Positions 17,130 to 64,000 of a DNA stretch of 64,000 nucleotides are shown piece after piece. The notes beneath the pieces were generated by a model. The model worked only from the letters and a program-made list of their open reading frames with translations, had not been told where the DNA came from and did not search any database. Numbering within the stretch: position 1 is the first letter of the stretch; every line of letters starts with the position of its first letter. The position numbers were made by a program, and so were the translations under genes. This DNA is from an uncultured bacterium. Its GTDB lineage: Bacteria; Babelota; Babeliae; Babelales; Babelaceae. The stretch covers positions 384,001 to 448,000 of the forward strand of contig CAWKFG010000004.1 in assembly GCA_963848965.1 (NCBI GenBank). Direction: 5' to 3'.

Positions 17130-17777
17130 ATGAATGCCATCTATCCATCACTTATTTCAGCCAATCTCTTGTGTTTAGCAGAAGAAATAGAAACATTAGA
17201 GCCATATGCAGCCGGATTTCATCTTGATGTTATGGATTTTCATTTTGTTCCTAATCTTACCTGGGGTCCTGATTTTATCAATGCTATTAGAGCAAAAGCT
17301 GCCAAGCAGTTATTAGTTCATCTTATGGTAGAATACCCAGAAAAATATTTTGACCGTTTTAAGCTCCATCCACAAGATATTATTTCAATTCATTTAGAGA
17401 GCCCTTCTTTATATTCTTTACCAGAACTTTATAAAGAAATTACCTCTCGTGGCTGGATACCAAGTATTGCCATTAATCCTTACACACCTCTTGAGGCACT
17501 TATTTCTCTTACTATACCTCTTAAGCACGTGCTTTTGATGTCTGTTGAACCAGGCTTTTCTGGCCAAAAGTTTTTACCCTTTATCCTTAAAAAGCTTAAG
17601 GCTTTAAATGACTTTCGTGCTGCACATAATCTTTCTTTTACTATTAGTGTCGATGGTGGTATTACCACCGATATAGCCAAAGAATTAGCCAAAAATGGAG
17701 CAAATCAGCTTGCTATAGCCTCGGCAATATTTCAAGCGCCAAACCCAGTAAAAGCTTTAGAGCAACTTTCACAATAA
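17130..17777 (+). CDS. rpe: Ribulose-phosphate 3-epimerase
   Basis: HLDVMDFHFVPN, HLMV, MSVEPGFSGQ, VDGGI. Confidence 0.96.
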   Translation: MNAIYPSLISANLLCLAEEIETLEPYAAGFHLDVMDFHFVPNLTWGPDFINAIRAKAAKQLLVHLMVEYPEKYFDRFKLHPQDIISIHLESPSLYSLPELYKEITSRGWIPSIAINPYTPLEALISLTIPLKHVLLMSVEPGFSGQKFLPFILKKLKALNDFRAAHNLSFTISVDGGITTDIAKELAKNGANQLAIASAIFQAPNPVKALEQLSQ

Positions 17778-17851
17778 ACCCTTGCTACACTCTTTGAATT
17801 TTATTTATAATTGAATTAATAAAAGTATCGTATATAAACAAAGGGTGTTTT

Positions 17852-40158: not shown

Positions 40159-41451
40159 TTAAGGCGCGCAGGAAGCGCAGGTTAAATAATTATAACTATA
40201 ACCATCACATGCATGAATAAGCTTACAATACTTGTAGCTTATACCTTGTATTGTAGAGCTATCAGTGACAATATTGAAAAAGCCATTAGCTCTTATTGCT
40301 ACCTTGCCTTTATAGATTCCCTTCTTTTTACCTTTAGTTACTACTGCTTGTATATGGTCTCCTGTCTGATAACCATAACACTTCTTTGCTCCTTTAGCAC
40401 TTGTGCGAGGAAAGCCATACTTATCTGGCCTACACATTTGTCTTGTACCATGGCCTGTAGCTTTAACAAGTAAGAGATTGATATCTTTAATAGAAAGGGT
40501 TAAAGGAGTACTAGCTCCAACACAAGCAGCATCGAGCCAATGAGTCTTTGGTAGATTGAGCTTTACTCTATTATACTTAGTCCTTCCTCCTGTCCCTGTC
40601 TCTACCGCTAATCCTAAAGAAAGTAGGTTTTGATACAATTGCCACCGTGTACTATTTACTGCCGCTGTGTCTCTTAGTGGTACTTGTGCTTGCTTTTGCA
40701 CATAAGGAAAGCCAAATTCTTGAGCTGTTTTATTACCTTTCCTTAGATTACAAAATCTACAGGCAAGAGTAAGATTAGAAACACGATTAGTTCCTCCTCT
40801 ACTTAAGGGTATAATATGCTCTATCTCTAGAGGTATACCTGAAGTATGACAATAAGCACATTGGCGGTTAAACTTTTCAAGTACATACTCACGTATTTCA
40901 TAACCAGCTAGCTCTCCCTGCTGGTATTGTATACCAGTAGTATCAGGATTTTGTATAAGCTGAGTATCAAAGCGTACTAACTCTTGGCTTATTGCTCCTA
41001 AAGGACAATAGCGAATAAGCTTTTTTACCCATGTTAGTATGTTAGCTATTCTGCTCTGTAAAGATGGGGCTAACCATCCTGCTTGCTTGCATCTATTATT
41101 AAAGCGAATCTCTCTATAGCGAGTATGCCTATTCCTTCTGCTCCGTCTTATTGTTCTTCTTGCTAAAAGCTGCTCATGAATATACTGACCTCTATGAGTA
41201 AGCTCTAAAGCAAAAATAACCATACCAGAGGTATCATTGATGATAACAATACCGGTGGTTTTGCTTCCTGGATCTATCTTAATGCGAAGAAGCTGAACAT
41301 CCATGCATGTTCTTTCTTCCTTAAGAATAATAACAAAAGGAAAGCGTCTAAAAATAGCAGCTTTACCGTGCTTAAGCAGTATTCTTGCTACAGCTGGATG
41401 ACAAGGGTTAAGAGGTTTTTTATTGTTATCAATAACGAATACGTATGACAT
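40159..41451 (-). CDS. iscB: RNA-guided endonuclease IscB
   Basis: PLNP (PLMP) N-terminus, RuvC-I IDPGSK, RRxRR bridge helix, RuvC-II ELVRFD, HNH EHIIP..RGG.N..SN, RuvC-III HWLDA; start MSYVFV at 41451 with AAAGGA RBS. Confidence 0.95.
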   Translation of the reverse strand: MSYVFVIDNNKKPLNPCHPAVARILLKHGKAAIFRRFPFVIILKEERTCMDVQLLRIKIDPGSKTTGIVIINDTSGMVIFALELTHRGQYIHEQLLARRTIRRSRRNRHTRYREIRFNNRCKQAGWLAPSLQSRIANILTWVKKLIRYCPLGAISQELVRFDTQLIQNPDTTGIQYQQGELAGYEIREYVLEKFNRQCAYCHTSGIPLEIEHIIPLSRGGTNRVSNLTLACRFCNLRKGNKTAQEFGFPYVQKQAQVPLRDTAAVNSTRWQLYQNLLSLGLAVETGTGGRTKYNRVKLNLPKTHWLDAACVGASTPLTLSIKDINLLLVKATGHGTRQMCRPDKYGFPRTSAKGAKKCYGYQTGDHIQAVVTKGKKKGIYKGKVAIRANGFFNIVTDSSTIQGISYKYCKLIHACDGYSYNYLTCASCAP

Positions 41452-41459
41452 AGTATCCT

Positions 41460-41707
41460 TTATAATAATCTCCCCTAACGGGGGTAAAGTTTGCCTCACT
41501 CATGTTATAAGGCGGTATATAGTAAGAGCACTGACTTATACCCTCAATCTGTTTAACCCTTACATTACAGAGCATGGAACTGGCAAGTATTCCATGGTGT
41601 GATCTTTAACTCTCCCTTATAACGTAGTCAAAAGCTGAGGCCTTTGACTTGAGCTGGTCAACGTGAGCTTTTACAAGCTACGCCCTTTAGAGAGCGTGGT
41701 AGTTGAC
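41460..41707 (-). ncRNA. omegaRNA (HEARO-like) scaffold
   Basis: GTCAAC...GTTGAC pairing, GACTACGTT, ACACCATGGAATACTTGCCAGTTCCATGCTCTG and ACATGAGTGAGG segments of the kind seen in IscB-associated RNAs; directly upstream of iscB. Confidence 0.8.
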
Positions 41708-49432: not shown

Positions 49433-50575
49433 TTATTTCTTTGTAACGACAAAATCTGGCGATTGACTACTAAGAAGTATCAACTTTTTATCTTTTAAAT
49501 AGTAATCAAAAAAGTCTACAAGTAAAGCACGAGTGATTTCAATGCCCTTAAGAGGATTCTTTCCATTTTTGAAAAGAGGGCTTTTGATGAGTTTTGAATC
49601 GACAAAAGTTGCATGGTCAGCATTTTTTACCGTTACATAAAAAGAATTATCTTTTAATTGATCAAAAACTTCTTTTGAGCGTCTTCCTAGCAAGCTATCA
49701 AATTGTTCTATGGTAAGCCCTGCATGGAGAGCTTCTTTATGCGTTAGCAGTTTTTCCGCTACAACGAATAAACTTGGTGTTTCAAAGGGCTTATCCCAGT
49801 TTGATCCAAATAACATGCCATCAAGATTTACCATGGCCTTAAAATCATTATTTTGTCGCACAGCTTCAGTTGCCGTGCTGCCGCCAAATGAATGGCCAAA
49901 TATGCCCATGCGCGGGAAGTCAAGTGATTTTGTTAATGGTTGATTGCGCAACCAATAGAGAACAAATTCAATATCTTTAAGCCATATTTCTTGAGCCATA
50001 TCAAATGTTTGCAAGCACGATCGCTCTTTGTTGGAAAATACATTCGCAAGTTCTGGCAAAATTTCTGGGCTAGACCCATCAGGGAACATTACTGGCCAAC
50101 AGGCATCGGTATGGTTAATTGCAACCACAACGTATCCATGACTAGCCATTTCTTCAATCAAAGATGAATATAATTGTGCTGCCATAAAAAAACCATGAGA
50201 GAAAAATAGCACGGGAAAGGGAGAATTCTCTTCATCGATTGGAGTATCTGGCATGGCCCAATCGCTGATCCTATCTAAATACTCTAGATCTTCTGGTAAT
50301 ATATTAGAGGTATGAACAAGCTTCTCTTTGTAGAGATGCATAGTATCAGAAAGATAGGGAGGATATTCTTTTTGTATTTCTATGGCTGGATAATAAAGTT
50401 GTACCAAAAGGGGACGATTTTTTTCATTGTTATAATAGCGAGATATATCTTTTAAAAAATGAGTCCTCACACCAACGTTATAGGAACCTGTTGGCCGAGG
50501 TAATTGAATTTTCTCTTGTACCATTATGTAAGCTCCAAATGATAAGGTTAATGCATAATAGTGTAGTATCTGCAT
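49433..50575 (-). CDS. Alpha/beta hydrolase, PAF-acetylhydrolase-like
   Basis: LPRPTG.Y.VG, FSHG, ASHGYVV, GHSFGG, NLDG. Confidence 0.87.
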   Translation of the reverse strand: MQILHYYALTLSFGAYIMVQEKIQLPRPTGSYNVGVRTHFLKDISRYYNNEKNRPLLVQLYYPAIEIQKEYPPYLSDTMHLYKEKLVHTSNILPEDLEYLDRISDWAMPDTPIDEENSPFPVLFFSHGFFMAAQLYSSLIEEMASHGYVVVAINHTDACWPVMFPDGSSPEILPELANVFSNKERSCLQTFDMAQEIWLKDIEFVLYWLRNQPLTKSLDFPRMGIFGHSFGGSTATEAVRQNNDFKAMVNLDGMLFGSNWDKPFETPSLFVVAEKLLTHKEALHAGLTIEQFDSLLGRRSKEVFDQLKDNSFYVTVKNADHATFVDSKLIKSPLFKNGKNPLKGIEITRALLVDFFDYYLKDKKLILLSSQSPDFVVTKK

Positions 50576-50786
50576 TTCGAAAAAACGTGAGTAACTGAAT
50601 AGGGTGACCGTGATCTAAAGAGAAGGCCGCAGATAAAGCAAAGTCATCCTTATTATTCTAACCCAAGGCTGCAGGTATTACAAGATCTCGCGCAGCGCTC
50701 TATTGGGTTTTGCTTTTTTGGGGATTTTGCCTGTTCGCCATATGCCCCAAGAACATTCCTCTATTAATAAAGAGAGCACACTATGG

Positions 50787-51083
50787 TTAAAAGCACGAGA
50801 GTTTGATCCTCGCGATATTGGCCAACTTAACTTCTATATATCAGCAGTTGATGATTTAGTACGTAATTCAGAAGATAAACCAACTATAGGCTTACTCCTA
50901 TGTAAAACAAAACGAAACTTTACTGCTGAATATGCTCTACGAAACATAAACTCTCCTATTGGAATTGCTCAATATACTACTCTAACGGAAAAACTACCAA
51001 AAGAACTCAAAGGAAGTCTTTCAACAATTGAAGAAATTGAAGCTGAGCTTGAAAAGCAAGAGATTTTACTAGAAAAAGAATAG
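50787..51083 (+). pseudogene. 3' fragment of a DUF1016/YhcG PD-(D/E)XK gene
   Basis: LKAREFDPRDIGQLNFY...IGLLLCK; near-copy of 62813-63109; 5' part absent. Confidence 0.85.
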
Positions 51084-51228
51084 GACGAGCTTTAATATCT
51101 TAGTTAGAAACCAAGTAAATAAGCTAAAGATTTTATACTATAAGCTTGTGATATAAGTTTGTTCAAATCTTAACTTTGATATAATTATATGACTAATAAA
51201 ACTATCTGATCAAGGTTCTAAAGAAGAC

Positions 51229-51277
51229 TGGTGTCTCCTGCTATACATGTTTCGGAACCGTGAGCTACTCTTTGAGG
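51229..51277 (+). repeat. att-like repeat copy 1
   Basis: TGGTGTCTCCTGCTATACATGTTTCGGAACCG...TTTGAGG. Confidence 0.85.
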
Positions 51278-51376
51278 TCTATCTCACTAATATTCAAATC
51301 CCTGTAAATAACTGTCAGAGATGTTAAAGAGTCCCTAAACTAAAAATAGTAAAAGTAAGTATTTCATATAATCTTC

Positions 51377-51970
51377 TTAAATTTCTGCATGCTCAACCGA
51401 TTCAAATATAAAAATCTGGCGATCTGCATGCCAGGTAAAGGTGGAAATTGATTCATTGGTTAATGCCGGCAATTCAGCTACATCATACCCTAAATGAGTA
51501 AGTAATGAACCAAGCACGTACCCATGAGTCACCACAGCAACGTGCTGCCCTTCATGTTTTTGCGCGATTTTATTCAGATAGCTCATAACCCGTGCCACCA
51601 CCTGATCGCGCGGTTCAGCTTCAATTATTGCTGGCAAAGAGTCATAATGAAAAGGACCATACAGCGCGCGAAACTCTTTCAAAGTAAGTCCTTGGACTTT
51701 TCCAAAATGTCCTTCACGCAGATCAACGGTAAGAGTAATTTCTAATGAAAACAGTTCAGAAATCTCTTGCGCAGTTTGATGTGCTCTTTGCAAATCAGAT
51801 GAATAAAGCGCGCCAAGCGAAACTTGTTTTTTCTTGAGAAATTGTGCTACTTTTTGCGCCTGCGCTTTTCCGGTTGCATTAAGTGGAATATCTTCATGCC
51901 CTTGCATTTTACCAGCAAGATTCCAATCAGTTTGGCCATGGCGAATAAGCAATAATGTTGTTGAACTCAT
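51377..51970 (-). CDS. Histidine phosphatase family protein
   Basis: LIRHGQTDWN, SSDLQRA.QTA, LRE, VVTHG; start at MSST (ORF track starts at 52009). Confidence 0.92.
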   Translation of the reverse strand: MSSTTLLLIRHGQTDWNLAGKMQGHEDIPLNATGKAQAQKVAQFLKKKQVSLGALYSSDLQRAHQTAQEISELFSLEITLTVDLREGHFGKVQGLTLKEFRALYGPFHYDSLPAIIEAEPRDQVVARVMSYLNKIAQKHEGQHVAVVTHGYVLGSLLTHLGYDVAELPALTNESISTFTWHADRQIFIFESVEHAEI

Positions 51971-51989
51971 GGAAAATCCTAAGCAAACG

Positions 51990-52418
51990 TTAAGCCAACA
52001 TATAGTCAACGGAAAATTCTGGAAATACTTCCTTTATCTTTGAAAGCATTGCTAGTGTAGGATTACATTTGCCAGCTTCTAGCCTTTGATAACTCCATAT
52101 TTTGTCAAATCCCATACGCTTTGCCAATTCTTGTTGAGTAAGGTTATGAGACATTCTGAAATATCGTATAAGAAATGAAAAGGCTATATTTGGATCTACC
52201 GGAACTTCTACAACACTTTTTGATGTCTTTATAGAAGCATCAGGAAATGGCGCTAAGTCTTTAGAATTCTCTGGTTCTTCTATATAAAGGTTTAAAGCTT
52301 CCTTCATATTAGCATAAAGCTCTTCCAAGCTATCTGCTTGCGTAACACAACCTTCTAATTCCAAGCAATGTGCCCAAAAGCCTTTTCCTTCTTTATGAAT
52401 TTTGAAATGATACTTCAT
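51990..52418 (-). CDS. hicB: HicB antitoxin with C-terminal XRE HTH
   Basis: LEGCVTQADSLEE...EAL; LTQQELAKRMG..YQRLE. Confidence 0.88.
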   Translation of the reverse strand: MKYHFKIHKEGKGFWAHCLELEGCVTQADSLEELYANMKEALNLYIEEPENSKDLAPFPDASIKTSKSVVEVPVDPNIAFSFLIRYFRMSHNLTQQELAKRMGFDKIWSYQRLEAGKCNPTLAMLSKIKEVFPEFSVDYMLA

Positions 52419-52428
52419 GATTAGTTCC

Positions 52429-52613
52429 TTATTGAGCTGATTTTAATAATTTTCTAAGGTAATGTTCTGTTCCTTTTGCTAATTCTTTATGGTTCGGGAT
52501 AATGGCTTGTTTACAGCCCTTCTTTTTGAGCTTAATATGACTTCCTACTTGTCCCTCAATTCATAGCCAGCCTTTAAAAAAAGCTTAACCATATCCTTAC
52601 CACTAATTGGCAC
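52429..52613 (-). pseudogene. hicA: Frameshifted HicA toxin
   Basis: GGAGG RBS, GTG start MPISGKDMVKLFLKAGYEL, then a frame change to GQVGSHIKLKK...IIPNHKELAKGT. Confidence 0.8.
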
Positions 52614-53018
52614 AAGTCCTCCTTTAATTAATAGTATAATTCTACCAAGTTTAATTGGCATTTGTCAAGGAGTTTAAATATGATATGACAAACTATCCTA
52701 AGACAATATTCGTCTATCTGCCTTCACTCGTCTATTTGTAGAAAAAGCAACTTCACAAATTTATGATGCAATAGAAAGCAATCCAAGGTAGCATATATAA
52801 CAAAACGCCAACATCTTATTGCTTGGATCATAGACACTACTAGGATGCTAACACGGATGCACTAGGACGCCACAGTACATCCTAGTGAATTACCAGGCAA
52901 CAAACTAAAGATAAAATTTTCTATAGCAGTTAGAGCTATGCTATAAGTTTGTTCAAATCACGATTTTGGTATAAATTTATAACAAATATATCGATATATT
53001 AACGATTCTTGAGAATAT

Positions 53019-53065
53019 TGGTGTCCCTTGCTTACATGTTTCGGAACCGGGAACTTGAATATGAG
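53019..53065 (+). repeat. att-like repeat copy 2
   Basis: TGGTGTCCCTTGCT-TACATGTTTCGGAACCGGGAACTTGAATATGAG. Confidence 0.85.
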
Positions 53066-53151
53066 CCAAACATATACAGCAGCTTGGAATCATTCTACTC
53101 ATCGCTTAGCATTTAGACTAATAGTTGCTAACACTTAGAGGTTTATCTATC

Positions 53152-53279
53152 AACGCTTGCACTATATCAATAAGTTTTTTACTCTTGAGAAAGTTACTCA
53201 GCAGACTATACTAGGCTATATAAAACTTTTATGACCTAAACTATGGACTTATAATTTTATGGTAAAGATTAAAAAAGCA
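53152..53279 (+). pseudogene. 5' remnant (upstream region and first codons) of a DUF1016 gene
   Basis: ATGGTAAAGATTAAAAAAGCA at 53259 is identical to the start at 59691; upstream ACGCTTGCA.TATATC.ATAA.TTTTTTAC is also shared. Confidence 0.7.
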
Positions 53280-53391
53280 AAACCAAAATCCACGATCTCA
53301 CTTACGTTAGCTATGGGAATATAGCAAAGTCACCTTTCATAATGAAAAGCATATACTATCATAATTAATTTAACCCTATTGAGAAGCGATT

Positions 53392-53727
53392 ATGACTATT
53401 ACATACAAACAATTTGAGGATGTAGATATTAGAGTAGGTACTATCGTAAACGTTCAGGATTTTCCCGAAGCACGTAAGCCTGCCTATAAACTCTCTATCG
53501 ATTTTGGCAAATCCATTGGTATCAAAAGATCCTCTGCTCAAATAACACATCATTATACGAAAGAGCAACTGTTAGGGAAGCAAGTTTTAGCTGTCGTTAA
53601 TTTTCCTCCTCGCCAAATTGGTCCTTTTATGTCAGAAGTACTAACGCTGGGCTTACCTGACGAATCCGGTAATGTGGTACTTATTCAACCAACATTGACA
53701 ATTCCCAATGGAGGTAAACTTTTTTAA
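53392..53727 (+). CDS. csaA: CsaA / Trbp111-type tRNA-binding protein
   Basis: DIRVGTI, FPEARKPAYKL, SSAQIT, VVNFPPRQIG..MSEVL. Confidence 0.92.
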   Translation: MTITYKQFEDVDIRVGTIVNVQDFPEARKPAYKLSIDFGKSIGIKRSSAQITHHYTKEQLLGKQVLAVVNFPPRQIGPFMSEVLTLGLPDESGNVVLIQPTLTIPNGGKLF

Positions 53728-53776
53728 AAGCTAGAGATTATTAAAGCCCCTTATTCCTTATATAAGAAAAAATTTA

Positions 53777-54283
53777 TTACTGCGATACCGTCGTATCGAT
53801 TGACGTATGCTCTAAATTGGCGCCTTGAAGATTCAGATTGATTAAAAAATTTACTATGCCTCGATTAAAATCTTGAACCATACTAACTCTTCCTCCAGGT
53901 AAAGAATCTCCCAATAATTGTATCACAAGTGCGCGAATCTTTGGAAAGTAATTAAATTTATTTGTTAACCTCACTGTATCATCTATACCTTTAATATATA
54001 AGCTGACTGCTTGTTCATTAGCTTCTGGAAGTATATCTGCTGGTTGCCATTCTGAGCTTAAGTTGAATCTTGTTGAGTGCCCAGATTTTAATAATTGCGG
54101 TCGCTTGAATTCAGTCGAGATTATATAATCGTTAGGTGTTTTATTAGAAACCTGTACAACAATATCAGGATATGCTCCTCTTAATGCAGCTATTACCTCT
54201 TTATCTGGTTCAGGCTCCATTCCTTTAATAGATAAAGGTAGAATATTTAGTAAACCAAAAATACATAAAAAAATTTTATTCAT
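53777..54283 (-). CDS. Secreted hypothetical protein
   Basis: AAGGA RBS; signal peptide then GME. Confidence 0.7.
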   Translation of the reverse strand: MNKIFLCIFGLLNILPLSIKGMEPEPDKEVIAALRGAYPDIVVQVSNKTPNDYIISTEFKRPQLLKSGHSTRFNLSSEWQPADILPEANEQAVSLYIKGIDDTVRLTNKFNYFPKIRALVIQLLGDSLPGGRVSMVQDFNRGIVNFLINLNLQGANLEHTSIDTTVSQ

Positions 54284-54452
54284 ATTGCATCCTTTTTATA
54301 AGCCCTATTAACAAATAAATATATATAATAAATTACAGATTAGTCAATATTAAACTAAATTTAATTATAAACCGTTGTCAGCAAAAGTTCTTGTTTAATT
54401 AACCCATATTTGATATAATGGGAAATATAATTATAAACGAAAGGATCTTATT

Positions 54453-54722
54453 ATGAAATCCATTTACGTAAAGGTTGATGAACGCAATCGTATAGCTTTA
54501 ACTAAGGCTACTAAAACTCCTTACAAAATTTACAAAATTCGCATGGAAGGCGAAACTATAATTCTCGAGCCAGTTATAGAGGCGCCAAAAGAGCAACATT
54601 GGTTATTTAAACCTGAGAATAAACATCTTTTGGCCCAACTTGAAGAGGGCTTAAAGCAAGAAGCTACCATATCTCGTGGTTCGTTTGCACAATATGCGAC
54701 TGACAATGAAGAAGATGAATGA
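54453..54722 (+). CDS. AbrB/MazE-like antitoxin
   Basis: VKVDERNRI.L, G.IILEP, E.HWLF; overlaps the toxin gene. Confidence 0.7.
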   Translation: MKSIYVKVDERNRIALTKATKTPYKIYKIRMEGETIILEPVIEAPKEQHWLFKPENKHLLAQLEEGLKQEATISRGSFAQYATDNEEDE

Positions 54723-55008
54723 AATACGCTTTTCTCCTCGAGCTGATAAAAACATGCAAGATTTGGAAGATGATCCATCCAAGGAAAGAATACTCAAAGA
54801 TGTTAAAAAAGCTCTAGGATTTATGGAAACTAACTTAAGGCATCCTTCATTGCAAACTCATGAATTTGATGAAATGACAGGTCCTAATGGAGAAAAAGTC
54901 TTTGAAGCTTATGCTCAAAATAAGACACCGGGAGCATATAGGATATTCTGGTATTATGGACCGGGAAAAAACGTTATATCAATCATTGCAATTTTACCAC
55001 ATCCTTAA
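54715..55008 (+). CDS. RelE/ParE-like toxin
   Basis: RHPSLQTH, VFEAY, AYRIFWYYG, ILPHP; start at MNEI (ORF track starts at 54676). Confidence 0.72.
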   Translation: MNEIRFSPRADKNMQDLEDDPSKERILKDVKKALGFMETNLRHPSLQTHEFDEMTGPNGEKVFEAYAQNKTPGAYRIFWYYGPGKNVISIIAILPHP

Positions 55009-55134
55009 TAGGAATTAACAGTCATCAAGCCAAGAGATCAGAAAAGACCATTTATATACTAAAAGTGTCTTAATTAGAGCTTTTGATACATTTTACACCG
55101 AGTATATCGATCTAGAAATGGTTCTAAAGCAAGC

Positions 55135-55182
55135 TGGTGTCCCCTGCTGTACATGTTTCGGAACCGTAAACTTGAATGTGAG
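55135..55182 (+). repeat. att-like repeat copy 3
   Basis: TGGTGTCCCCTGCTGTACATGTTTCGGAACCGTAAACTTGAATGTGAG. Confidence 0.87.
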
Positions 55183-55222
55183 ATTTGTTTAGATGACATT
55201 AAAGTAATTTTTGTACAACCTA

Positions 55223-56377
55223 TTAAACCTTAATCTCTTTTAATATATTAAGTCCCCAGGCTGTACTCTTTTCACTTAATGGGAAATGAATATTGCCTGG
55301 GAAAATTACATACAAATGATCCAGTCTCAAATCTTCAAGTGCTATATGCATAGATTTTGTCATTTTAGGTGTATCACTGTACTTAAATTCAAAGCCTAAA
55401 CGCTTTCCACTTTTAAAGACAAATAGATCCAGCTCTGCTTTATTAGAAGTTGACCAAAAATAACAATCATCTGCTCTTATTTGCAAACAATTAATAACTT
55501 GCTCTAAAGCAAAACCTTCCCATAATGCCCCAATTTTAGGGTTTTTTGCTAACTCTGTAAGAGTATGAATAGAGGATAAGGTATTAAAAATACCACTATC
55601 TCTAAAATAGATTTTAGGCGTTTTTACTTGTCGCTTTTTTATATTTTCAAACCAAGGCTGCAAAACACGTATCATAAAAGTGCCTGCCAATATATCTAAG
55701 TATTTTTTTATTGTTTTATCTGACAACATTAAAGAATGTGCAATCTCATGAGCATTAAAGTACTGCCCATGATAAAAACAAAGCATCATCCAAAAGCGAT
55801 GCATTATTTTTGAGGGAACATCAAAACCAAAGTTTGGTAGGTCTTTCTCTAGAAAAGTGTTGATATATCCTTCTCGCCATAAAAAACTATCTTCCTCTGA
55901 TTGAGCTAAATAAGATCTCGGAAATCCGCCACGGATGAGTAACTTATCTGAATGATCAACTTCAAAAATGGTAAATGGAGGCAGCTCTATGTAGCCAATT
56001 CTTCCAGCTAATGTTTCTGATGATTGATGTATTAATTCTCTTGATGCGCTTCCCAAAATCAAAAATGAGTATTTTTTTTCTGGATCATCAACAAGTACTC
56101 GTAAAACTGGAAAAAGGTCTGGTCTACGTTGAATTTCATCTATAACAACAAGAAAGTTTTCATACTTGCTTAATGTAAGCATTGGATTTTCTAAGCTTGC
56201 TAAATGGATAGGATTTTCTAAGTCAAAAAACTCAACCTTACCAGTATATTGCTCAGAAAATTGACGCGCTAGTGTTGTTTTTCCTACTTGACGTGCTCCC
56301 AGAATTGCACATATTGGTTGTACCCTTAAATGTCTTTTAACTTGCTCTAAATATATTTTTCTTAGCATATTTTCCAT
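55223..56377 (-). CDS. AAA_14 ATPase with DUF4143 domain
   Basis: GARQVGKTT, IDEIQ, LGSAS, ETLAGR, KTPKIYFRDSG, ELDL, EFK. Confidence 0.9.
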   Translation of the reverse strand: MENMLRKIYLEQVKRHLRVQPICAILGARQVGKTTLARQFSEQYTGKVEFFDLENPIHLASLENPMLTLSKYENFLVVIDEIQRRPDLFPVLRVLVDDPEKKYSFLILGSASRELIHQSSETLAGRIGYIELPPFTIFEVDHSDKLLIRGGFPRSYLAQSEEDSFLWREGYINTFLEKDLPNFGFDVPSKIMHRFWMMLCFYHGQYFNAHEIAHSLMLSDKTIKKYLDILAGTFMIRVLQPWFENIKKRQVKTPKIYFRDSGIFNTLSSIHTLTELAKNPKIGALWEGFALEQVINCLQIRADDCYFWSTSNKAELDLFVFKSGKRLGFEFKYSDTPKMTKSMHIALEDLRLDHLYVIFPGNIHFPLSEKSTAWGLNILKEIKV

Positions 56378-56465
56378 GCAAATTCGGAACTATAGTCCAA
56401 TATTACATGGAACTATAGCAAAAGTCAAATGACTAGAATAATCTACCAGACATTCCAAGAAAGGC

Positions 56466-56513
56466 TGCTATCCTCTGCTTGGCATATTTCGGAACCGAGA
56501 GCTTTTGTTTGAG
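56466..56513 (+). repeat. att-like repeat copy 4 (degenerate)
   Basis: TGCTATCCTCTGCTTGGCATATTTCGGAACCGAGAGCTTTTGTTTGAG. Confidence 0.75.
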
Positions 56514-56557
56514 ATTGATTTTAAAGAGATACAAGCACTTCTTGCTTTACCTTTTCA

Positions 56558-57289
56558 TTAAAATACCATTGTACTTCTTTTATCTTTATTAAGCTTGCTA
56601 AGATATGGCCTTAAGAATCTAATAAATTTTTTTTCATTTGCTATACCTTCTTGAGTATATAAATTAAAGTGTGCCAATGAACGTTCATCTGAATCAATAA
56701 CCAAAAGAGTAACCGGCCTTTGAGGTAGATTTACTAAAGAAAATAGTACCCAGTGGTCACCTACGGTTACAACAAAGTATATTGCTTGTGGCTCTCTCTT
56801 AACCATGGCCATCAGGCGATTAAGTTCTTTATGTAATAAGTCATCCAAGTCTAAAGAAGTCTCTTTAGAATCAAGCAATGTGATTTCGTCCTTCTTTGCT
56901 GTCAAACATATGAGCTTATTTCCAATACCATTTTTATCTGCAAGTCTTTGTATGTGATAGTCCCAAAGGCCCTTATCCTTTCCATACTGAGTATATAGTT
57001 TCTTAAGTGCTTTCTGGTTTCGTAAACCAATTTTTAACACTTCTTTAAAATTACGTGGAGTTTTAAGAGCCTTTTCTATTGCAAGTGCATGAAAAACAGC
57101 CCGCAATCCACAAGACCATTCATCAGCCTGAGCTAGATAATTGCGTATTTGAATTACATTATGCCTAGTAAATTGTTTAGTAACAGTTATTACAAGCGGC
57201 TTACTGAGGGAAATAATATAACTTAACGGCTTGGCCGCTATTTCTGCTATAACTATTAAAAGAGATAAAATAACTATTACACTATTCAT
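56558..57289 (-). CDS. Putative papain-fold cysteine protease (paralog 3)
   Basis: QADEWSCGLR...DHWVLF...LVIDS. Confidence 0.58.
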   Translation of the reverse strand: MNSVIVILSLLIVIAEIAAKPLSYIISLSKPLVITVTKQFTRHNVIQIRNYLAQADEWSCGLRAVFHALAIEKALKTPRNFKEVLKIGLRNQKALKKLYTQYGKDKGLWDYHIQRLADKNGIGNKLICLTAKKDEITLLDSKETSLDLDDLLHKELNRLMAMVKREPQAIYFVVTVGDHWVLFSLVNLPQRPVTLLVIDSDERSLAHFNLYTQEGIANEKKFIRFLRPYLSKLNKDKRSTMVF

Positions 57290-58016
57290 AATTATACCTT
57301 TGCCTTTAATAAATCACGCTTGCTTTGGCTCTTTGGTACTTTAAGAAAGCCTATAAACTGACAAAAAAATGGGTTTATTTACAAGATTTTAAGCTCTATT
57401 TCAAAAAAGGTTGGAATCTTTTGCGCTTGCTCAACTGCTAGAGCATGCAAGATGACATAGAGGTCACAAAACTAATTATCGTCTTGTGCTAACCTATAGC
57501 ATATGCGTTCAACATATTTTCTTCGTAATTTATTAAATAGGATAATAACAAAAGTATTAGCAAACTCAAACGCTTGGCTTATTCTTAAATTTTAATTAAA
57601 ATAATCGATAAATTTAGCAAAAGCACTATTGAAAACATAGAGGGATAAACTTGCTTCTTAATTGGAGCTAACGGTTCTATTAACAACAATAATTTGGATG
57701 ATATAGAAGAGCATGCTTAAATTTTACGATTAACCCCGAAAAGAATAGTGGCTCCATAGGTTGGGTATTCTTTATCCCCATAAAAGTAAAACGATAAAAT
57801 CTTTCAATGGTGATGCTTGATGGACGAAAAACACCAATAGAAGACTCTAAATTAAGGAAGTCAAATAGCCATCCTTGAGATGGCAACGCCCATCAACCAC
57901 TGCATCTTGCAGCGCACGTTGATTTAGATTTTTATTTGCAAATAAAATTGACATCTATTTTAATATTAGTTACTATAAGTAAGGAATTTAATGTTTTTAT
58001 AATGTAAGGTCTAACT

Positions 58017-59438
58017 ATGAAGATGTATGCGAAATTTCTCGTAACTGTATGCAGCCTAATGGCTTTCAGTATAATTGCTATGGAGAAAACTGCCGATCAA
58101 AAGAGCAATTACCGCGGACTAGCCATATCAATGACTGATGAGGTGCTACTAAGTAAGAGTAAAAGCACCGATCGTGAATTTATCAACCTTATCCAAAATG
58201 CATATCCTGAGATGAATTACTTGACCTCACCAGCGCATGCAAGCCCTGAAGGTCAGGCTAGTGCTCATGAATCTTCTCCTTCAAAGCTTCTATTTGGGAA
58301 GCAACATATAGAGTATGATCGTACTATTGTTGGTATTCTTGCTTTAAAATGGGTACTTGTAGACGATTATGATCACTTTGTTGAAGGGCAGCCGGAACAT
58401 ATTAAATTAAAAAGAGAAAGCTTTAACGAGCTGCGCACCTTAACGCTCAAGGTCATTAAAAATGGTATGCTCAACGCTTTAGTAACCTCGCTGGTCATCA
58501 ACGATTTAGGTAAAATAATCTCTTTTGTTAAAGAGGTTGAAGGACGAACGGGAATGAGTGAAGTTGACCATGATAACATTTTATTTACGGCCTTATTAAA
58601 GTATCCAGAACTTATTCCTAGCTTTACTCATTTAACAAGTGACCAACAAAAAACGATTCTTAAAAGTCTTGGCGCCCAGTTTAATTTAGGTCAGTTTGTT
58701 CGAGCAGAGAATCTTCCTGCAAGTTTAAAGGGCTTACAAGGGCTTAGCCAAGAAGAGCTCGATTTTAACAATATCCATGTATTATACGACCTTGCTGGCG
58801 CACGAGGTCACATTTCAAGTCAAGGTTCATTATTATTAACTGAACCTGTTTATCAATCCTTTATTACTGCTTTTAAGGTGTTTAATGAGATTGCACCTAT
58901 AACATGTAACCAAGATTTAACGCATATATACAATGCTTATCTAGCTTTACGAGCACGATCTTTAAATAGTAAGGATTCACTTGCGATACCAGAAAGCCGA
59001 GCTTTAGTCCGTATTGCATGTATGGTAGGCTCTAGTAATGATGCTGAGTTTACTAAAGTAAAAGATGCTTTTAATAAGTTATCCTATAAAGAACAAAAGA
59101 TACTTATTGATGAGCTTAATAAGACAGGTATTAATGATGTAGGTATTTTGCTCTATTATGCGCCAGCTATTCTTACTAATGCACGATCTACATCTCCCCA
59201 AGATTCGGAGTATAGCCTCCAAGTTGGGCTAAGATACTTAGCCAAAGTCTTTAAATTAGCACGAGCTTCCATTGCCGATGGACAGCAAGGCAGAGTGTAT
59301 ACGGTAGATTGTGCAGCTTTGGCCCAGGCAATAAAGGTCCCTCAAGAACTTGGATACTGTACCCTTGAGCTTAAGCCTGTAAATAATGATGCTCAAGTGG
59401 TAGTGCATGCTAAGCTATTAGGCGCTCCCTATAATTAA
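58017..59438 (+). CDS. Secreted hypothetical protein, HD-like (possibly DUF6829-like)
   Basis: Signal peptide then AME; EYDRT, INDLGK, DHD, NLGQ..RAE, DLAGA.GH. Confidence 0.6.
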   Translation: MKMYAKFLVTVCSLMAFSIIAMEKTADQKSNYRGLAISMTDEVLLSKSKSTDREFINLIQNAYPEMNYLTSPAHASPEGQASAHESSPSKLLFGKQHIEYDRTIVGILALKWVLVDDYDHFVEGQPEHIKLKRESFNELRTLTLKVIKNGMLNALVTSLVINDLGKIISFVKEVEGRTGMSEVDHDNILFTALLKYPELIPSFTHLTSDQQKTILKSLGAQFNLGQFVRAENLPASLKGLQGLSQEELDFNNIHVLYDLAGARGHISSQGSLLLTEPVYQSFITAFKVFNEIAPITCNQDLTHIYNAYLALRARSLNSKDSLAIPESRALVRIACMVGSSNDAEFTKVKDAFNKLSYKEQKILIDELNKTGINDVGILLYYAPAILTNARSTSPQDSEYSLQVGLRYLAKVFKLARASIADGQQGRVYTVDCAALAQAIKVPQELGYCTLELKPVNNDAQVVVHAKLLGAPYN

Positions 59439-59494
59439 GCCTTATCCTTTGGTCTTATTTCTATCTAAAGCTTGAGCCCTTAGCAAAAGCCCTA

Positions 59495-59520
59495 TCAGAA
59501 CCGAGAACTTGAATTTGAGG
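59495..59520 (+). repeat. att-like repeat copy 5 (3' half only)
   Basis: TCAGAACCGAGAACTTGAATTTGAGG. Confidence 0.65.
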
Positions 59521-60010
59521 TTACCCTTCATAACGATCTTGAAGCTTTCCTAACCCTTATTCAGGCTAGAATGGTAAATACTTAACGCTATATCCGAACT
59601 CCTGATACGTACGCTTGCAATATATCTATAATTTTTTTACGCTTAAATAAACATCTGACAGACTTTTATTAGGCTAATAAAGCTATTCCTATGGTAAAGA
59701 TTAAAAAAGCACAATTATCAAGTAATAAAGATTTAGGTTCCTTGCTTAATGAGGATTACTTTCAGACCTTGGAGGATCTCAAACAAAAGATCAGGCAAGC
59801 TCAACTGAGAGCATCCCTGTCCGTGAACTTAGAACTTATTAAGCTTTACTAGGAAATCGGCCACACTATTGTCCAAAAGCAAGAAAGCAACGGTTGGGGT
59901 GCCAAGATCATCGATAGTTTTGCTAAGGATTTGCAGGCAGCTTTCCCCGGAATTGAAGGATTTTCCTGCACTAATATCTTCTATATGAGAGCCTTTTATC
60001 TATCTTGTGA

Positions 60011-60037
60011 AATTGTCCAACAGCTTGTTGGACAATT
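60011..60037. repeat. 27-bp palindrome, copy 4, inside the DUF1016 coding region
   Basis: AATTGTCCAACAG-C-TTGTTGGACAATT, encoding IVQQLVGQ. Confidence 0.85.
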
Positions 60038-60455
60038 GTCAGATTTACCGTTCTTTAAGATTCCATGGGGCCACAATGTAACGCTAATCAGCAAGCTCAA
60101 ACATAACGATCAGCGTATATGGTATGCTAAAAAAGCAATAGAAGATGGGTGGAGCAGGCAGGCACTTGAACGAATGATTAAATCTGATCTCTATAGCAGA
60201 CAAGGTAAAGCTATTACTAACTTTAATGAAAAGCTTCCTAATCCTCAATCTCATCTTGCCAACGATATATTAAAATCACCTTATAATTTTGACTTTCTTA
60301 CCTTAACATCTGAATATGATGAACGAGAGCTTGAGCAAGGGCTAGTAGATCATATACAAAAGTTCCTTATAGAATTAGGCAAAGGCTTTGCTTTTGTAGG
60401 AAGGCAATATCATATAGAAGTTGAAGGCAGAGATTATTATATAGATTTGCTCTTT

Positions 60456-62776
60456 GTGCGATCCGCAAGTCTTGCGCTTTCGATGCAAGATGAACTACTG
60501 ACACCGTGGTGGCTCAATTCCACCTCCCTTGATATCGGGGTAACAGTATGACCCACACATTAAGAACTGGTAAATCTTACTGTGCAAGCATGGGGCAAAA
60601 AGGGAGTAACTCTGAACTCAACAGAGAAATCCTCTCAAACAGAGTTAGACATGGTTACGCGAGAAACCTGTGTCTGAACCGTCGTAAGGTCGTGATGTGC
60701 GAATGAGTTGATACGCACAAACCAAAAGGTAATGAGGTGCAAGAGGAGTCAGGAATGAATAGGCCTGATTAAGATATTCTCGAGCCTCCGGCGGAAAGCA
60801 GGAACCTACATCTAACGCGAAACGGTATTCAGTGGAACGGAGTAACCATTATAACGCTCTTAAAAAAAAAATAAGCAGGTACCAGCCGCATGCGCTATAA
60901 TGGAGGGATTATCTCAGAAGCAAATGCCTAGAATAACAGCTAGGATAGGCTAACAGAGATACAGTAACTTAGAAGGTAAAGTTATGAGTAGCGGTACAAA
61001 CGTCATGAACCAATCAAAGATTAGGTATGAATGGAAAGACATACCATGGCAAAAAAAGCTAGAGGTATCAGTCTTCAAGCTGCAAAAGCGAATTTACCGA
61101 GCCTCACAACGTAATGATACCGTTATGGTGCATAGGCTACAAAGACTGTTGATCAAATCAACAAGCGGAAAACTACTTGCGGTCAGAAGAGTAGTGCAAG
61201 AAAACCTGGGCAGAAAGACTGCTGGGATAGACGGTATTGCAAACATCACACCAAGGGAACGTCTACGTCTAGCCGAAACGCTAACTCTCGACACTGATAG
61301 TAAACCAGTCAGGCGCGTTTGGATACCAAAACCGGGGAAAACAGAAAGGCGGCCTCTGGGGATACCTACAATCACAGATAGAGCGAAACAGGCACTTCTA
61401 AAACTGGCTCTAGAGCCTGAATGGGAGGCCAAGTTCGAGCCAAACAGCTATGGGTTCAGGCCTGGACGGTCATGCCATGACGCTTATGGAGCAATCTTCG
61501 AAGCTCTCAAAAGAAAAACTGCATACGTACTTGATGCAGATATATCTGGATGCTTTGATAACATTGACCACAACGAATTATTGAGAAAGCTAAACACGAC
61601 GCCAACGACGCAACGAATAGTGAAAGGATGGCTAAAGGCTGGAGTAATGGAAGGGAGTGTGTTTCAAACAACTGAGCGAGGAACACCCCAAGGGGGAGTG
61701 ATATCTCCATTACTAGCGAACATAGCTCTCCACGGAATGGAAGACGACACGAAGAAAGCCCTTGCCAACGAGCTCTTCCAATATGCAAAAGGAAAACGAG
61801 GCAAAACGGCCCATCTTCATGCACAAAAGACCATCAGCATAATTCGATACGCCGATGACTTCGTAATAACTCATGAAAGCAAAGACATTGTACTAAAGGC
61901 TAGCTCCTATATTGAAGGATGGCTCAACAATATTGGCCTACAACTAAAGCAATCAAAAACTAGAATGACTCATACTCTGAATTGGAGCGAAGATCAGAAG
62001 CCTGGCTTTAACTTCCTAGGCTTCACAGTCAGACAGTTCTCGGTCAAACAAAGCAAGAAAGGCTACAAACTATTAATCAAGCCAAGTCGAGAATCAATGA
62101 AACGACACGCAAAAGCGATCAAAGAAATGCTTCGGTCCGTAAGAGCGGCACCACAAGAAACCGTTATCAGTAAGCTGAATCCCATTGTGAAAGGGTGGAG
62201 CAGATACTTCGCAGTTGGCGTATCACGCAAAGCATTCGAACGGTTAGACCATGATATGCATCACAAGCTTTGGCGATGGGCAAAGTATAGACATCCGCAA
62301 AAGGGAAAGGGATGGATCATACGAAAGTACTTCCGCAAGTATGGCAATGACGTATGGAGATTCATGACTCATGAGCAAATGTTTCTTGCTCGCCATAGCG
62401 ACCAACTGATAAGGCGACACGTGAAGGTGAAAGGAACCAAATCACCCTACGATGGAGATATGGTATACTGGGCTACACGGCTGGGTAGATCGCTAGAGCT
62501 ACCAGTAGCGATAACAAAACTACTGAAAACGCAGAAAGGCAAATGCAAAGTATGCAGGTTCTGGTTCAAAACAGAAGACTTGATGGTAGTTCACAAAAAC
62601 ACAGGTAAAAGCAACAAGAGAGAAGATGTCAAACTTATTCACCAAAGCTGTCATTAATAAAAAAAATGAGGTATATGTATCAAAATACTAAGCTACTGAG
62701 GAGCCGTATGAATCGAAAGATTCACGTACGGTTCTGGAGTCGAGCAGAGAAAGTCGCCTTTCTCTGCTTAGATAAC
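60456..62776 (+). mobile_element. Group II intron (probably IIB / chloroplast-like class)
   Basis: 5' GTGCG; domain V GAGCCGTATGAATCGAAAGATTCACGTACGGTTC at 62701-62734; domain VI hairpin ending AAC; removal restores the host frame. Confidence 0.93.
60984..62657 (+). CDS. ltrA: Group II intron reverse transcriptase/maturase
   Basis: RPLGIPT..DR, SYGFRPGRS, GTPQGGVISPLL.NI, RYADDF, FLGF, LNPIVKGW..YF; degenerate C-terminal CKVC...HQSCH. Confidence 0.95.
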   Translation: MSSGTNVMNQSKIRYEWKDIPWQKKLEVSVFKLQKRIYRASQRNDTVMVHRLQRLLIKSTSGKLLAVRRVVQENLGRKTAGIDGIANITPRERLRLAETLTLDTDSKPVRRVWIPKPGKTERRPLGIPTITDRAKQALLKLALEPEWEAKFEPNSYGFRPGRSCHDAYGAIFEALKRKTAYVLDADISGCFDNIDHNELLRKLNTTPTTQRIVKGWLKAGVMEGSVFQTTERGTPQGGVISPLLANIALHGMEDDTKKALANELFQYAKGKRGKTAHLHAQKTISIIRYADDFVITHESKDIVLKASSYIEGWLNNIGLQLKQSKTRMTHTLNWSEDQKPGFNFLGFTVRQFSVKQSKKGYKLLIKPSRESMKRHAKAIKEMLRSVRAAPQETVISKLNPIVKGWSRYFAVGVSRKAFERLDHDMHHKLWRWAKYRHPQKGKGWIIRKYFRKYGNDVWRFMTHEQMFLARHSDQLIRRHVKVKGTKSPYDGDMVYWATRLGRSLELPVAITKLLKTQKGKCKVCRFWFKTEDLMVVHKNTGKSNKREDVKLIHQSCH

Positions 62777-63259
62777 TATCACACAAAGCTTAAATGCTAT
62801 ATAGTTGTAGAATTAAAGGCACGAGAATTTGACCCTCGCGATATTGGCCAACTTAACTTCTATATATCAGCAGTTGATGATTTAGTACGTGATTCAGAGG
62901 ATAAACCAACCATAGGTTTGCTTCTGTGTAAGACAAAAAGAAACTTTACTGCTGAATATGCTCTACGAAATATAAGCTCGCCTATCGGGATTGCTCAATA
63001 TACTACTCTAACAGAAAAACTACCAAAAGAACTTAAAGGAAGTCTTCCAACAATTGAAGAAATTGAGGCCGAGCTTGAAAGGCAGGAAATTTTACTAGAA
63101 AAAGAATAGAGTGAACTTTAATACTTTAGTTAGAAGTCAAGTAAATACGCTGAAGATAAGATCCTCTAAGGTAAGTTTTTAATATAAGCCCGTTCCAATC
63201 TTAATTTTGATATAGCACCATGTCAAATACATTCATCTAATCAAAATTCTAAAGAAGAC

Positions 63260-63308
63260 TGGTGTCCCCTGCTATACATGTTTCGGAACCCTAAGCTCTT
63301 GTTTGAGG
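63260..63308 (+). repeat. att-like repeat copy 6
   Basis: TGGTGTCCCCTGCTATACATGTTTCGGAACCCTAAGCTCTTGTTTGAGG. Confidence 0.87.
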
Positions 63309-63546
63309 TTGACCTTAAAGAAATTCCGGTGATTTTAAACCTGCTAGAAAAGTAATTTTGATATAATAAGAACTTAGTCTTTTAAGCAAACAGTCCCTAA
63401 AAAGTATGCTACAAACTACAAAATCGTACACAAAAGCTATTTATCGCTTATCGTATAGAACCTTGAACAAATTAATTAAACACAGTATTATAAGTGATAC
63501 GATAATCTGGGAATTGGATTCCCAGATTGCAAGCAAGGAGTTTTAT

Positions 63547-64000
63547 ATGATTAATAGAGAACTAAACCACTCTTTGGTTAAAGCAGCAAATGAATTTCCT
63601 GTAGTTGCTGTATTGGGCCCACGGCAATCTGGCAAAACAACTTTGGTTCAAACAACTTTCACCGATCATAGGTATGTCTCCTTAGAAGATTTTGACTTGC
63701 GGAACCTAGCAAATCGAGATCCTCGAAGATTTTTACAAGATTACCCTAGTCAAAGCGGCATTATTCTAGATGAAGTACAACATGCTCCCCAGCTTCTTTC
63801 TTATATTCAAACCACAGTCGACCGTGAAAAAAGAAAAGGATATTTTATTCTCACTGGCTCTCAGAATTTGCTAATGAATGAGGCGATAACACAAAGCCTT
63901 GCTGGTAGAATTGCACTTTTAGACCTTTTTCCGCTATCCATAAGTGAACTTGAGCATGCTTCATTACTACCCCAAAAAATAGAAGAGGTTGTTTTTAAAG
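63547..64000 (+). CDS. AAA_14/DUF4143-type ATPase, 5' part (runs off the window)
   Basis: Manual translation MINRELNHSLVKAANEFPVVAVLGPRQSGKTT...ILDEVQ...LTGSQ...QSLAGR; AAGGAG RBS. Confidence 0.88.
   Translation, partial: MINRELNHSLVKAANEFPVVAVLGPRQSGKTTLVQTTFTDHRYVSLEDFDLRNLANRDPRRFLQDYPSQSGIILDEVQHAPQLLSYIQTTVDREKRKGYFILTGSQNLLMNEAITQSLAGRIALLDLFPLSISELEHASLLPQKIEEVVFK

Follow-up and report, generated by a model that had tools for sequence, protein, structure and literature searches.

Integron arrays bring together small promoter-less, recombinase-less cassettes, each with one site, at a single platform, and are rich in toxin-antitoxin genes. Composite islands of the staphylococcal cassette chromosome (SCC) are described as tandem units with direct repeats that large serine recombinases (LSRs) place at one chromosomal site, some of the units being without a recombinase (PMC7029136; 10.1101/336396). 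tRNA genes are classic landing pads of tyrosine integrases (PMC4383910), and the account of tycheposons in Prochlorococcus describes small cargo at tRNA genes, with older elements pushed in and remnants left (10.1101/2020.12.28.424599). Here, we describe an array of repeats and small units that ends at a tRNA gene in an uncultured member of the Babelaceae (GenBank assembly GCA_963848965.1). It begins within the window, by which we mean the whole analyzed stretch of 64,000 nucleotides (C4:384001-448000, where C4 is contig CAWKFG010000004.1) of a 1.73-Mb, five-contig assembly that is 88.7% complete; “window-equivalent” positions continue these coordinates rightwards beyond the window end at 64000. 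We put the probability at roughly two in three that the repeats are attachment junctions of an LSR family integrating at tRNA 3' ends, with the units between them stacked in trans.

SCC composite islands with pseudo-SCC units that lack ccr are, by analogy, the closest parallel. As described for SCC, LSR insertion occurs at the 3' end of a conserved gene, and tandem units, some of them recombinase-less, lie between direct repeats. Unlike SCC, the target is not rlmH/orfX but a tRNA gene, at its CCA end, the junctions are ∼160 nt long and include a coding module, the units measure 1.3 to 3.8 kb and not tens of kilobases, and the hosts are of the Dependentiae and candidate phyla radiation (CPR) type. 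The only LSR of this genome, on contig C1 (the C1 LSR), is also distant from the SCC enzymes: CcrA/CcrB/CcrC models score 38 to 78 bits (CcrA/CcrB, 75 to 78 bits) against cut-offs of 700 to 900.

An original prediction, made from the window alone, had described six copies of a 31-nt repeat, and copies are present at all six positions (Table 1). As a 31-nt pattern, the repeat occurs three times with at most one mismatch (51229, 55135, and 63260) but in none of 100 shuffled sequences; a looser core adds 53027 and 56475 (five matches in total; shuffle mean, 0.05), and a nucleotide profile built from five copies (nhmmer) detects the weak half copy at 59495 (E = 0.0025). Repeat finding and alignment indicate that the true conserved unit is ∼160 nt, to which the similarity between most copies is limited. 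Pairwise identity among repeats is 64 to 91%, and the left arms of repeats a, b, and f are 73 to 78% identical across 94 nt. In a genome-wide search, profile matches start within the window at C4 positions 435142, 436931, 439048, 440386, 443495 (weak), and 447171 and beyond it at 448803, 450922 (left half only), 452144 (right half only), and 453484. Because the two halves (window-equivalent 66922 and 68144) belong to a single junction, interrupted by a 1.16-kb IS110 insertion sequence (IS), the array runs past the window to a total of nine junctions, all on the plus strand, from C4:435142 to 453618, within a 20.7-kb stretch counted to the tRNA. The junctions are spaced at 1.3 to 3.8 kb, the unit sizes originally given, and bound nine recombinase-less units, the last of which is closed by the tRNA. 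Outside this stretch the nucleotide profile has a single, weak match (E = 1.4e-4), on contig C2; the repeat is thus clustered, as had been expected, and not scattered genome-wide.

The IS110-family element occurs in three copies, with a 314-aa transposase above the NCBIfam IS110 cut-off (L019:4986-6144, equal to C4:450986-452144 or window-equivalent ∼66986-68144; C1:386018-387196; and C1:396668-397838). All three lie inside junctions, with the 6-mer core region (CCCCTRCT) on one side and the T-loop-like motif described below on the other, and the element appears to target the attachment sites themselves. IS1111-attC elements, which target integron attC sites, offer a likeness. Contig C3 (9,474 bp) is a 99.5% identical variant of C1:387180-396639, the segment between two IS110 copies, and could reflect strain heterogeneity, a duplicated segment, or an artifact of assembly across the IS repeats.

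The array is anchored at a tRNA-Arg(TCT) gene whose 3' end reads CCGGGCACACCA. A minus-strand tRNA to the right of 64000 had been foreseen, but with the identity tRNA-Arg(CCT), and none of the 33 tRNA genes that ARAGORN finds in the genome ends in GCAGGGGACACCA, the ending named beforehand, the absence of which had been set down as a refuting result. The repeat profile also matches the 3' flank of the tRNA-Arg(TCT) gene (C4:455793-455888; window-equivalent 71793-71888). Repeat and tRNA site have in common ∼45 nt of downstream flank and the six bases TGGTGT and then diverge; this core is the antisense of ACACCA, the end of tRNA-Arg(TCT). Since identity to the tRNA ends after TGGTGT, the repeats are not displaced partial tRNAs, and their proposed origin as duplicated tRNA 3' ends of the tycheposon or tyrosine recombinase kind fails, with only six bases and downstream flank in common. 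The ∼45-nt similarity to the host site on the left side is longer than is typical for LSR sites. ARAGORN detects no tRNA or partial tRNA in the window. We also considered the repeat as a decayed whole tRNA or tRNA-like RNA and rejected this, as ARAGORN found none and Rfam gave no match at the repeats. Past tRNA-Arg(TCT) comes the ATP synthase operon; no recombinase lies beside the tRNA, where one had been thought probable.

Single junctions of the same design lie 2.3 to 3 kb from the tRNA-Asp and tRNA-Glu genes of C4, with cores (TGGCGG and TGGCGT) that match those tRNAs. At both genes the tRNA-adjacent arm is nearly duplicated at the far junction, which indicates that insertion leaves a site still resembling the original target. 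The tRNA-Asp unit carries a gene resembling the NpmA-family 16S rRNA (A1408) methyltransferases (L028:5107-5703, minus strand, equal to C4:219107-219703; PF24675, 203 bits) beside a full-length YhcG gene and a CAAX protease gene. Two small GIY-YIG genes (L029:15231-15542 and 17571-17819, both minus strand; C4:521231-521542 and 523571-523819) lie directly downstream of tRNA-Glu and past the far junction of its unit, such that the duplicated “trailer” includes a whole gene. Conserved hairpins of two types, GCTCC-NNNN-GGAGC and CTGGCC-TGCCAG, lie just downstream of several tRNAs, with GAAGAC between them and the CCA end (the flanks of tRNA-Asp, tRNA-Glu, and tRNA-Met [173565] on C4 and loci L036, L043, and L076); these may be part of the host-side half-site.

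The geometry of the junctions connects them to serine integrases. Each appears to consist of a left arm like tRNA-downstream DNA, the 6-bp core TGGTGT, and a right, P-prime (P') arm. In all tRNAs examined, the T-loop TTCGAAC (CTCGAAC in Asp) begins 11 nt past the 6-mer, versus 16 nt for a TTCGRAM-type motif in the element-side arms of a, c, d, f, and j (five of the seven array arms with a recognizable motif). The 16-nt offset recurs in L036, L046, and L097; the value for b is 15, and that of 19 for g stems from a mis-set anchor. As reported for A118-family integrases, a 9-bp zinc-ribbon-domain motif lies at positions 16 to 24 of the element site (attP) and 5 bp nearer the center in the host site (attB) (PMC3783163). 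Together with this published shift, the offsets of 16 and 11 nt make the right arms look like attP-type and the tRNA like attB-type half-sites, in which the P' arm would imitate the tRNA T-loop ∼5 bp further from the core. The known phage-type enzymes (A118/LI) are described as having Resolvase, Recombinase, and zinc ribbon domains and quasi-symmetric sites of ∼46 to 50 bp, in which the distal motif of the host side lies 5 bp closer to the center than that of the element side (PMC3783163); unlike in that system, attB here is a tRNA end, with the T-loop apparently serving as the distal motif. On the left arm, 13 nt separate GTTCTAA from the right end of the 6-mer, compared with 16 nt in LSR genes. 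Judging from where identity ends, the crossover probably falls inside the 6-mer or at its right edge.

No recombinase is encoded in the array units, as had been predicted: Pfam searches of all open reading frames (ORFs), recombinase searches, and a profile of the LSR C terminus found none. The genome has a single PF00239 match, the 486-aa C1 LSR (C1:377109-378569), with Resolvase, Recombinase, and Zn_ribbon_recom domains. This protein ends in QAWRAR followed by a stop, and the final codons of the gene lie antisense to the tRNA-Arg(TCG) 3' end, the W being encoded by TGG, the antisense of CCA. To its right are three further junctions of the same family, two of which hold IS110 copies. A profile built on the C-terminal 60 residues of the LSR matches only the C1 gene in this genome (next best E = 0.17), with no match in the array, including its left arms, where remnants of LSR 3' ends might have lain.

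The C1 LSR has more than 2,000 homologues; among the 120 matches listed, identity is 64 to 72%, and those that are named belong to Dependentiae, Babeliales, or TM6. We fetched 80 loci from species-representative genomes, including several CPR-labelled metagenome-assembled genomes. In 53 of these, an ORF with 380 codons or more extends in frame into the TGG/CCA of a tRNA on the minus strand (Asp, 13; Glu, 14; Gln, 7; Asn, 11; Arg, 8). The remaining 27 include loci that abut a non-tRNA arm, contig ends, and two broken ORFs beside tRNA-Arg. In a midpoint-rooted FastTree phylogeny of 54 LSRs, the tRNA targets are intermixed and the C1 enzyme (Arg-TCG) is nested among Asp and Gln enzymes, a weak hint that target choice is not fixed by protein lineage. 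A ∼373-aa partner protein is encoded with the LSR in 13 relatives and also on C1 (47 to 84% identity; e.g., L026:3655-4845, minus strand, and L076:6807-7928), and its gene is absent from the C4 array. The partner has no Pfam match at E ≤ 1, no PHROG match, and no Foldseek match at E ≤ 0.001; its AlphaFold model has a mean pLDDT of 59, and VIA-align gives a best Z of 5.2, with winged-helix-like rows at Z ∼4 to 4.5 over residues 303 to 380. Its N terminus may be reminiscent of rolling-circle initiators, and the protein probably serves the autonomous element in a core role.

The right arms carry a coding module that ties the array to these enzymes. On the plus strand from TGG, array right arms read W-C-P-L-L-Y-M-F-R-N-R-E-L-E-F-E-V-D-L-K-D-I, with a stop after 22 to 33 codons, and the module consensus is WxxLVDMFRNxxIEFxFxLxxIQTVF. 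Pairwise comparison of 31 modules gives mean differences of 0.47 at the first, 0.31 at the second, and 0.565 at the third codon position, and Arg is encoded by CGG, AGG, CGA, CGT, and AGA, indicating that the module is under coding constraint. A reading of the right arm as the terminus of a minus-strand gene (a ribbon-helix-helix-like “VPK” peptide) was rejected because the plus frame better explains the synonymous changes and matches LSR tails. In 37 of the 80 loci, a module lies upstream on the LSR strand (in 3 more, on the other strand only), 3.9 to 10.7 kb from the LSR in the cases read, and the order tRNA-trailer, core, module was read directly in L036, L076, and L108. Of 115 parsed C termini of LSR homologues, 8 have [FL]R[NTSI] at W+7 to W+9 (e.g., P0059, WSPLVDAFRNGKVEFTISLSHIQSTF), in the same frame and with the same spacing as in the array; most of the other 107 stop at most four residues past W or read through antisense tRNA (e.g., WCARQDSNLRPTD), and a few have other tails. 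Modules are also fused to long ORFs in L046, L091, L092, L100, and L081, which we read as tandem LSR elements. On the simplest reading, the LSR gene would continue across the crossover into the right arm in the excised circle. This would set the family apart from the phage-type integrases, as the integrase ORF would span the crossover and its C terminus would differ between integrated and excised forms. Weak orphan matches to the tail module also occur away from arrays (C4:507844-507951, C2:5264-5341, and C2:10449-10493) and may be relics of further junctions.

From these observations, a mechanism can be proposed. In autonomous relatives, the LSR gene would read into the core from the left; the integrated form would stop a few codons inside the antisense tRNA, and an LSR gene that abuts a P' arm, in an excised circle or an array, would gain the conserved peptide LVDMFRN..IEF.F.L..IQT as a C-terminal tail. 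The units of the C4 array would be non-autonomous cassettes stacked successively at the tRNA by an LSR in trans, either the C1 LSR at tRNA-Arg(TCG) or one since lost. New units would enter beside the tRNA, with older ones pushed outward (leftward). We favor movement in trans because L036 contains an LSR-less 2.7-kb unit between LSR-core-P' and trailer-core-tRNA-Asp and because the arms at tRNA-Asp and tRNA-Glu are near copies; a recombinase in trans seems the most economical reading. The original view of the repeats as attachment junctions of elements stacked at a tRNA gene is supported in outline. Its capture platform with a recombinase in trans keeps the stacking, but the enzyme class indicated is LSR and the sites are attP-type.

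Several points weigh against this proposal. The order of insertion, mobilization in trans, and any present-day activity are inferred. Canonical serine integrases are reported to recombine attP only with attB (PMC3783163). Under such strict pairing, no attB would be left after one insertion, such that serial stacking needs a regenerated site or a relaxed enzyme, and tandem arrays are not expected; the required reaction, trailer-core-P' with trailer-core-tRNA, is non-canonical. The module of many relatives has TTCAGGAAC, TTTAAGAAC, or TTCCGTAAC in place of a clean TTCGAAC; with this looser motif, the T-loop mimicry is approximate and the offset is 4 to 6 bp depending on register. The left arm could be either a B-type (trailer) half-site or a decayed P-type one (LSR 3' end). 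The arms of the C1 LSR itself differ from those of the C4 array, making cross-recognition by this enzyme a guess, and at 88.7% completeness a further LSR could be missing from the assembly. No near relative carries the repeat: BLAST of 40 same-family genomes gave no match, and the exact core has no occurrence in the genome contig collection. (Three exact-core matches in metagenome contigs were judged to be chance by flank reading and profile scoring.) Much of the array may be inert, given that cores are degenerate in three of nine junctions (d, e, and g), one further junction is split by an IS, and hicA and one YhcG copy are truncated. Finally, 50787-51278 duplicates 62813-63309 at 85.5% identity, covering the YhcG 3' end and the repeat (a versus f), so not every junction requires its own integration event.

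The same signs of decay favor the best of the alternatives, which we nevertheless consider unlikely: a fossil array, in which nine autonomous LSR elements integrated serially at tRNA-Arg(TCT), each later lost its LSR and partner, and the units never moved in trans and are now immobile. The merely 64 to 91% identity among repeats fits this scenario, as do the decaying LSR genes of relatives, with internal stops and fragments. Nevertheless, the array contains no detectable remnant of an LSR or partner, although decaying copies in relatives are readily detected. The left arms, LSR-less as they are, form a sequence family of their own (a, b, and f), and an LSR-less unit with a trailer-type arm exists in L036 as well. 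A census of this genome and 40 relatives of the same family also speaks against a fossil array: we found 15 module matches for one LSR here, compared with 0 to 5 modules (at least 1 in 12 genomes) and 0 to 5 LSR matches (at least 1 in 17, some of them decaying) in the relatives, a ratio there of roughly 1:1. The C4 array is therefore an outlier.

A more far-reaching and rather doubtful reading joins three ideas, namely a tail switch, a cassette capture platform, and one LSR for several tRNAs, such that recombination would rewrite the recombinase. The integrated enzyme would end two to four residues past the Trp that derives from antisense CCA, and the excised or in-array enzyme would gain a ∼30-residue conserved tail from the partner arm, which might act as a built-in directionality or activity switch. 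Cassettes would keep only the tRNA-trailer, the 6-bp core, and the tail-coding arm, together making up an integron-like capture platform at the ends of tRNAs. A single LSR could suffice for several tRNAs, since the core would pick the target and the enzyme would read the universal T-loop/CCA architecture.

It is very improbable that the repeats stem mainly from one junction that was copied, with its neighboring DNA, by local tandem duplication or unequal crossing-over. The a/f duplication and the two units with paralogous AAA_14-DUF4143 genes are of the kind such copying would produce, but the remaining units have no cargo in common, the likeness of most copies stops at ∼160 nt, and the same junction type stands singly at tRNA-Asp, at tRNA-Glu, and on C1.

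We give almost no credence to tycheposon-like or tyrosine-integrase islands with displaced partial tRNA ends, or to an attC-bearing integron: the outward displacement of older units in a tandem stack at a tRNA, as in tycheposons (10.1101/2020.12.28.424599), and a GGTTC...GAACC inverted pair in the repeat are set against only 6 nt of identity to the tRNA, an arm geometry and encoded tail that tie the repeat to the LSR family, and a genome whose two PF00589 tyrosine recombinases are both best matched by XerC/XerD. Integron integrase models score 83 and 48 bits, on these Xer-like proteins only, versus a cut-off of 265, and neither protein is encoded near the array. Tycheposons are described with partial tRNA flanks, a tyrosine recombinase, and often replication modules, unlike the 6 nt and LSR here. 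With integrons the array has in common small recombinase-less units stacked at one platform and toxin-antitoxin cargo; it differs in having no IntI, a tRNA end as platform, and genes in both orientations.

The cargo of the units (Table 1), which comprises toxin-antitoxin, defense, and effector-like genes, was assigned with Pfam and largely agrees with the original description, including the His_Phos_1/HicB genes, the CsaA-like gene with the 168-aa protein and ParE-like pair, both AAA_14-DUF4143 genes, and the DUF1016 gene with its intron; what had been called hicAB retains only a stump of hicA. A pair described as a Cys protease and an HD-like protein proved to be a 243-aa ORF without a Pfam match and a DUF6829 protein. 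The group II intron (60456-62776) is single-copy, with a reverse transcriptase-maturase ORF at 60984-62657 and a domain V match at 62699-62776, and splits YhcG exactly between YYIDLLF and YHTKLKCY, within the PD-(D/E)xK core. Cargo types also found near LSRs of relatives include the His phosphatase, the ParE pair (with a homologue in L066), DUF2608, a platelet-activating factor (PAF) acetylhydrolase (PAF-AH) type hydrolase, ankyrin, and Fic proteins. A promoter scan gave 57 sites versus 42.6 ± 6.6 in shuffles, with two minus-strand consensus matches in the left arms of a and f, an uninformative result.

Table 1. Repeats, cargo genes, and anchoring tRNA of the array. Positions are those of the window or, beyond 64000, window-equivalent
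Feature	Position	Strand	Description
YhcG fragment	50703..51083	+	Truncated PDDEXK nuclease, C-terminal fragment
Repeat a	51142..51306	+	Left arm; core TGGTGT 51229-51234; TTCGGAAC 16 nt past core; right (P'-type) arm ORF WCLLLYMFRNRELLFEVYL
Unit a-b	51377..52418	-	Histidine phosphatase (His_Phos_1), 51377-52009; HicB-like antitoxin with helix-turn-helix (HTH), 51990-52418
hicA stump (unit a-b)	52545-52661		38 aa
Repeat b	52931..53096	+	Core TGGTGT at 53019; TTCGGAAC 15 nt past core
Unit b-c	53392..55008		CsaA-like tRNA_bind protein, 53392-53727 (+); 168-aa protein without assignment, 53777-54283 (-); 89-aa and ParE-like 110-aa pair, 54453-55008 (+)
Repeat c	55048..55212	+	Core TGGTGT at 55135
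Unit c-d	55223..56377	-	AAA_14-DUF4143 ATPase
Repeat d	56386..56544	+	Degenerate core TGCTAT at 56466; right arm intact
Unit d-e	56558..59438		243-aa ORF, 56558-57289 (-); DUF6829 protein (473 aa), 58017-59438 (+)
Repeat e	59474..59534	+	Strongly decayed; only right arm recognizable, with 1-nt deletion
Unit e-f	59931..63109	+	YhcG/DUF1016 nuclease gene split by group II intron
Repeat f	63171..63337	+	Core TGGTGT at 63260
Unit f-g	63406..64000+	+	Second AAA_14-DUF4143 ATPase (442 aa); extends past window end
Junctions beyond window	64803; 66922/68144; 69484	+	66922/68144 split by IS110
Unit g-h			AbiEii/AbiEi
Unit i-j			Ankyrin-repeat protein
Unit j-tRNA			Fic and HTH; DUF2608
tRNA-Arg(TCT)	71879-71955 (C4:455879-455955)	-	ARAGORN; 7.9 kb right of window

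Immediately left of repeat a is a PAF-acetylhydrolase-like alpha/beta hydrolase gene (49433-50575, minus strand), homologues of which occur in or near the LSR elements of relatives (L080, L042, L069, L097, L103, and L045); the island may therefore continue left of repeat a, the first recognizable junction. Elsewhere in the window, an IscB-type gene (RRXRR and HNH; 446 aa, minus strand) lies at 40159-41707 with a HEARO RNA directly upstream (RF02033, 134.7 bits; 41484-41707, minus strand).

We found no description of an LSR family at tRNA ends in Dependentiae or CPR bacteria in the literature searched, which covers the field in part. In these bacteria, a widespread serine-recombinase family targets the final six bases of tRNAs and seems to carry an imitation of the T-loop in its own site, which provides a natural example, replicated many times over, of the attP/attB offset model. 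Enzymes that are related but differ in their tRNA targets are of interest for programmable integration, and an integration-dependent LSR C terminus is a directly testable idea on directionality control. The array suggests that reduced, host-dependent bacteria gather defense and toxin-antitoxin genes as recombinase-less cassettes, a role filled elsewhere by integrons and SCC.

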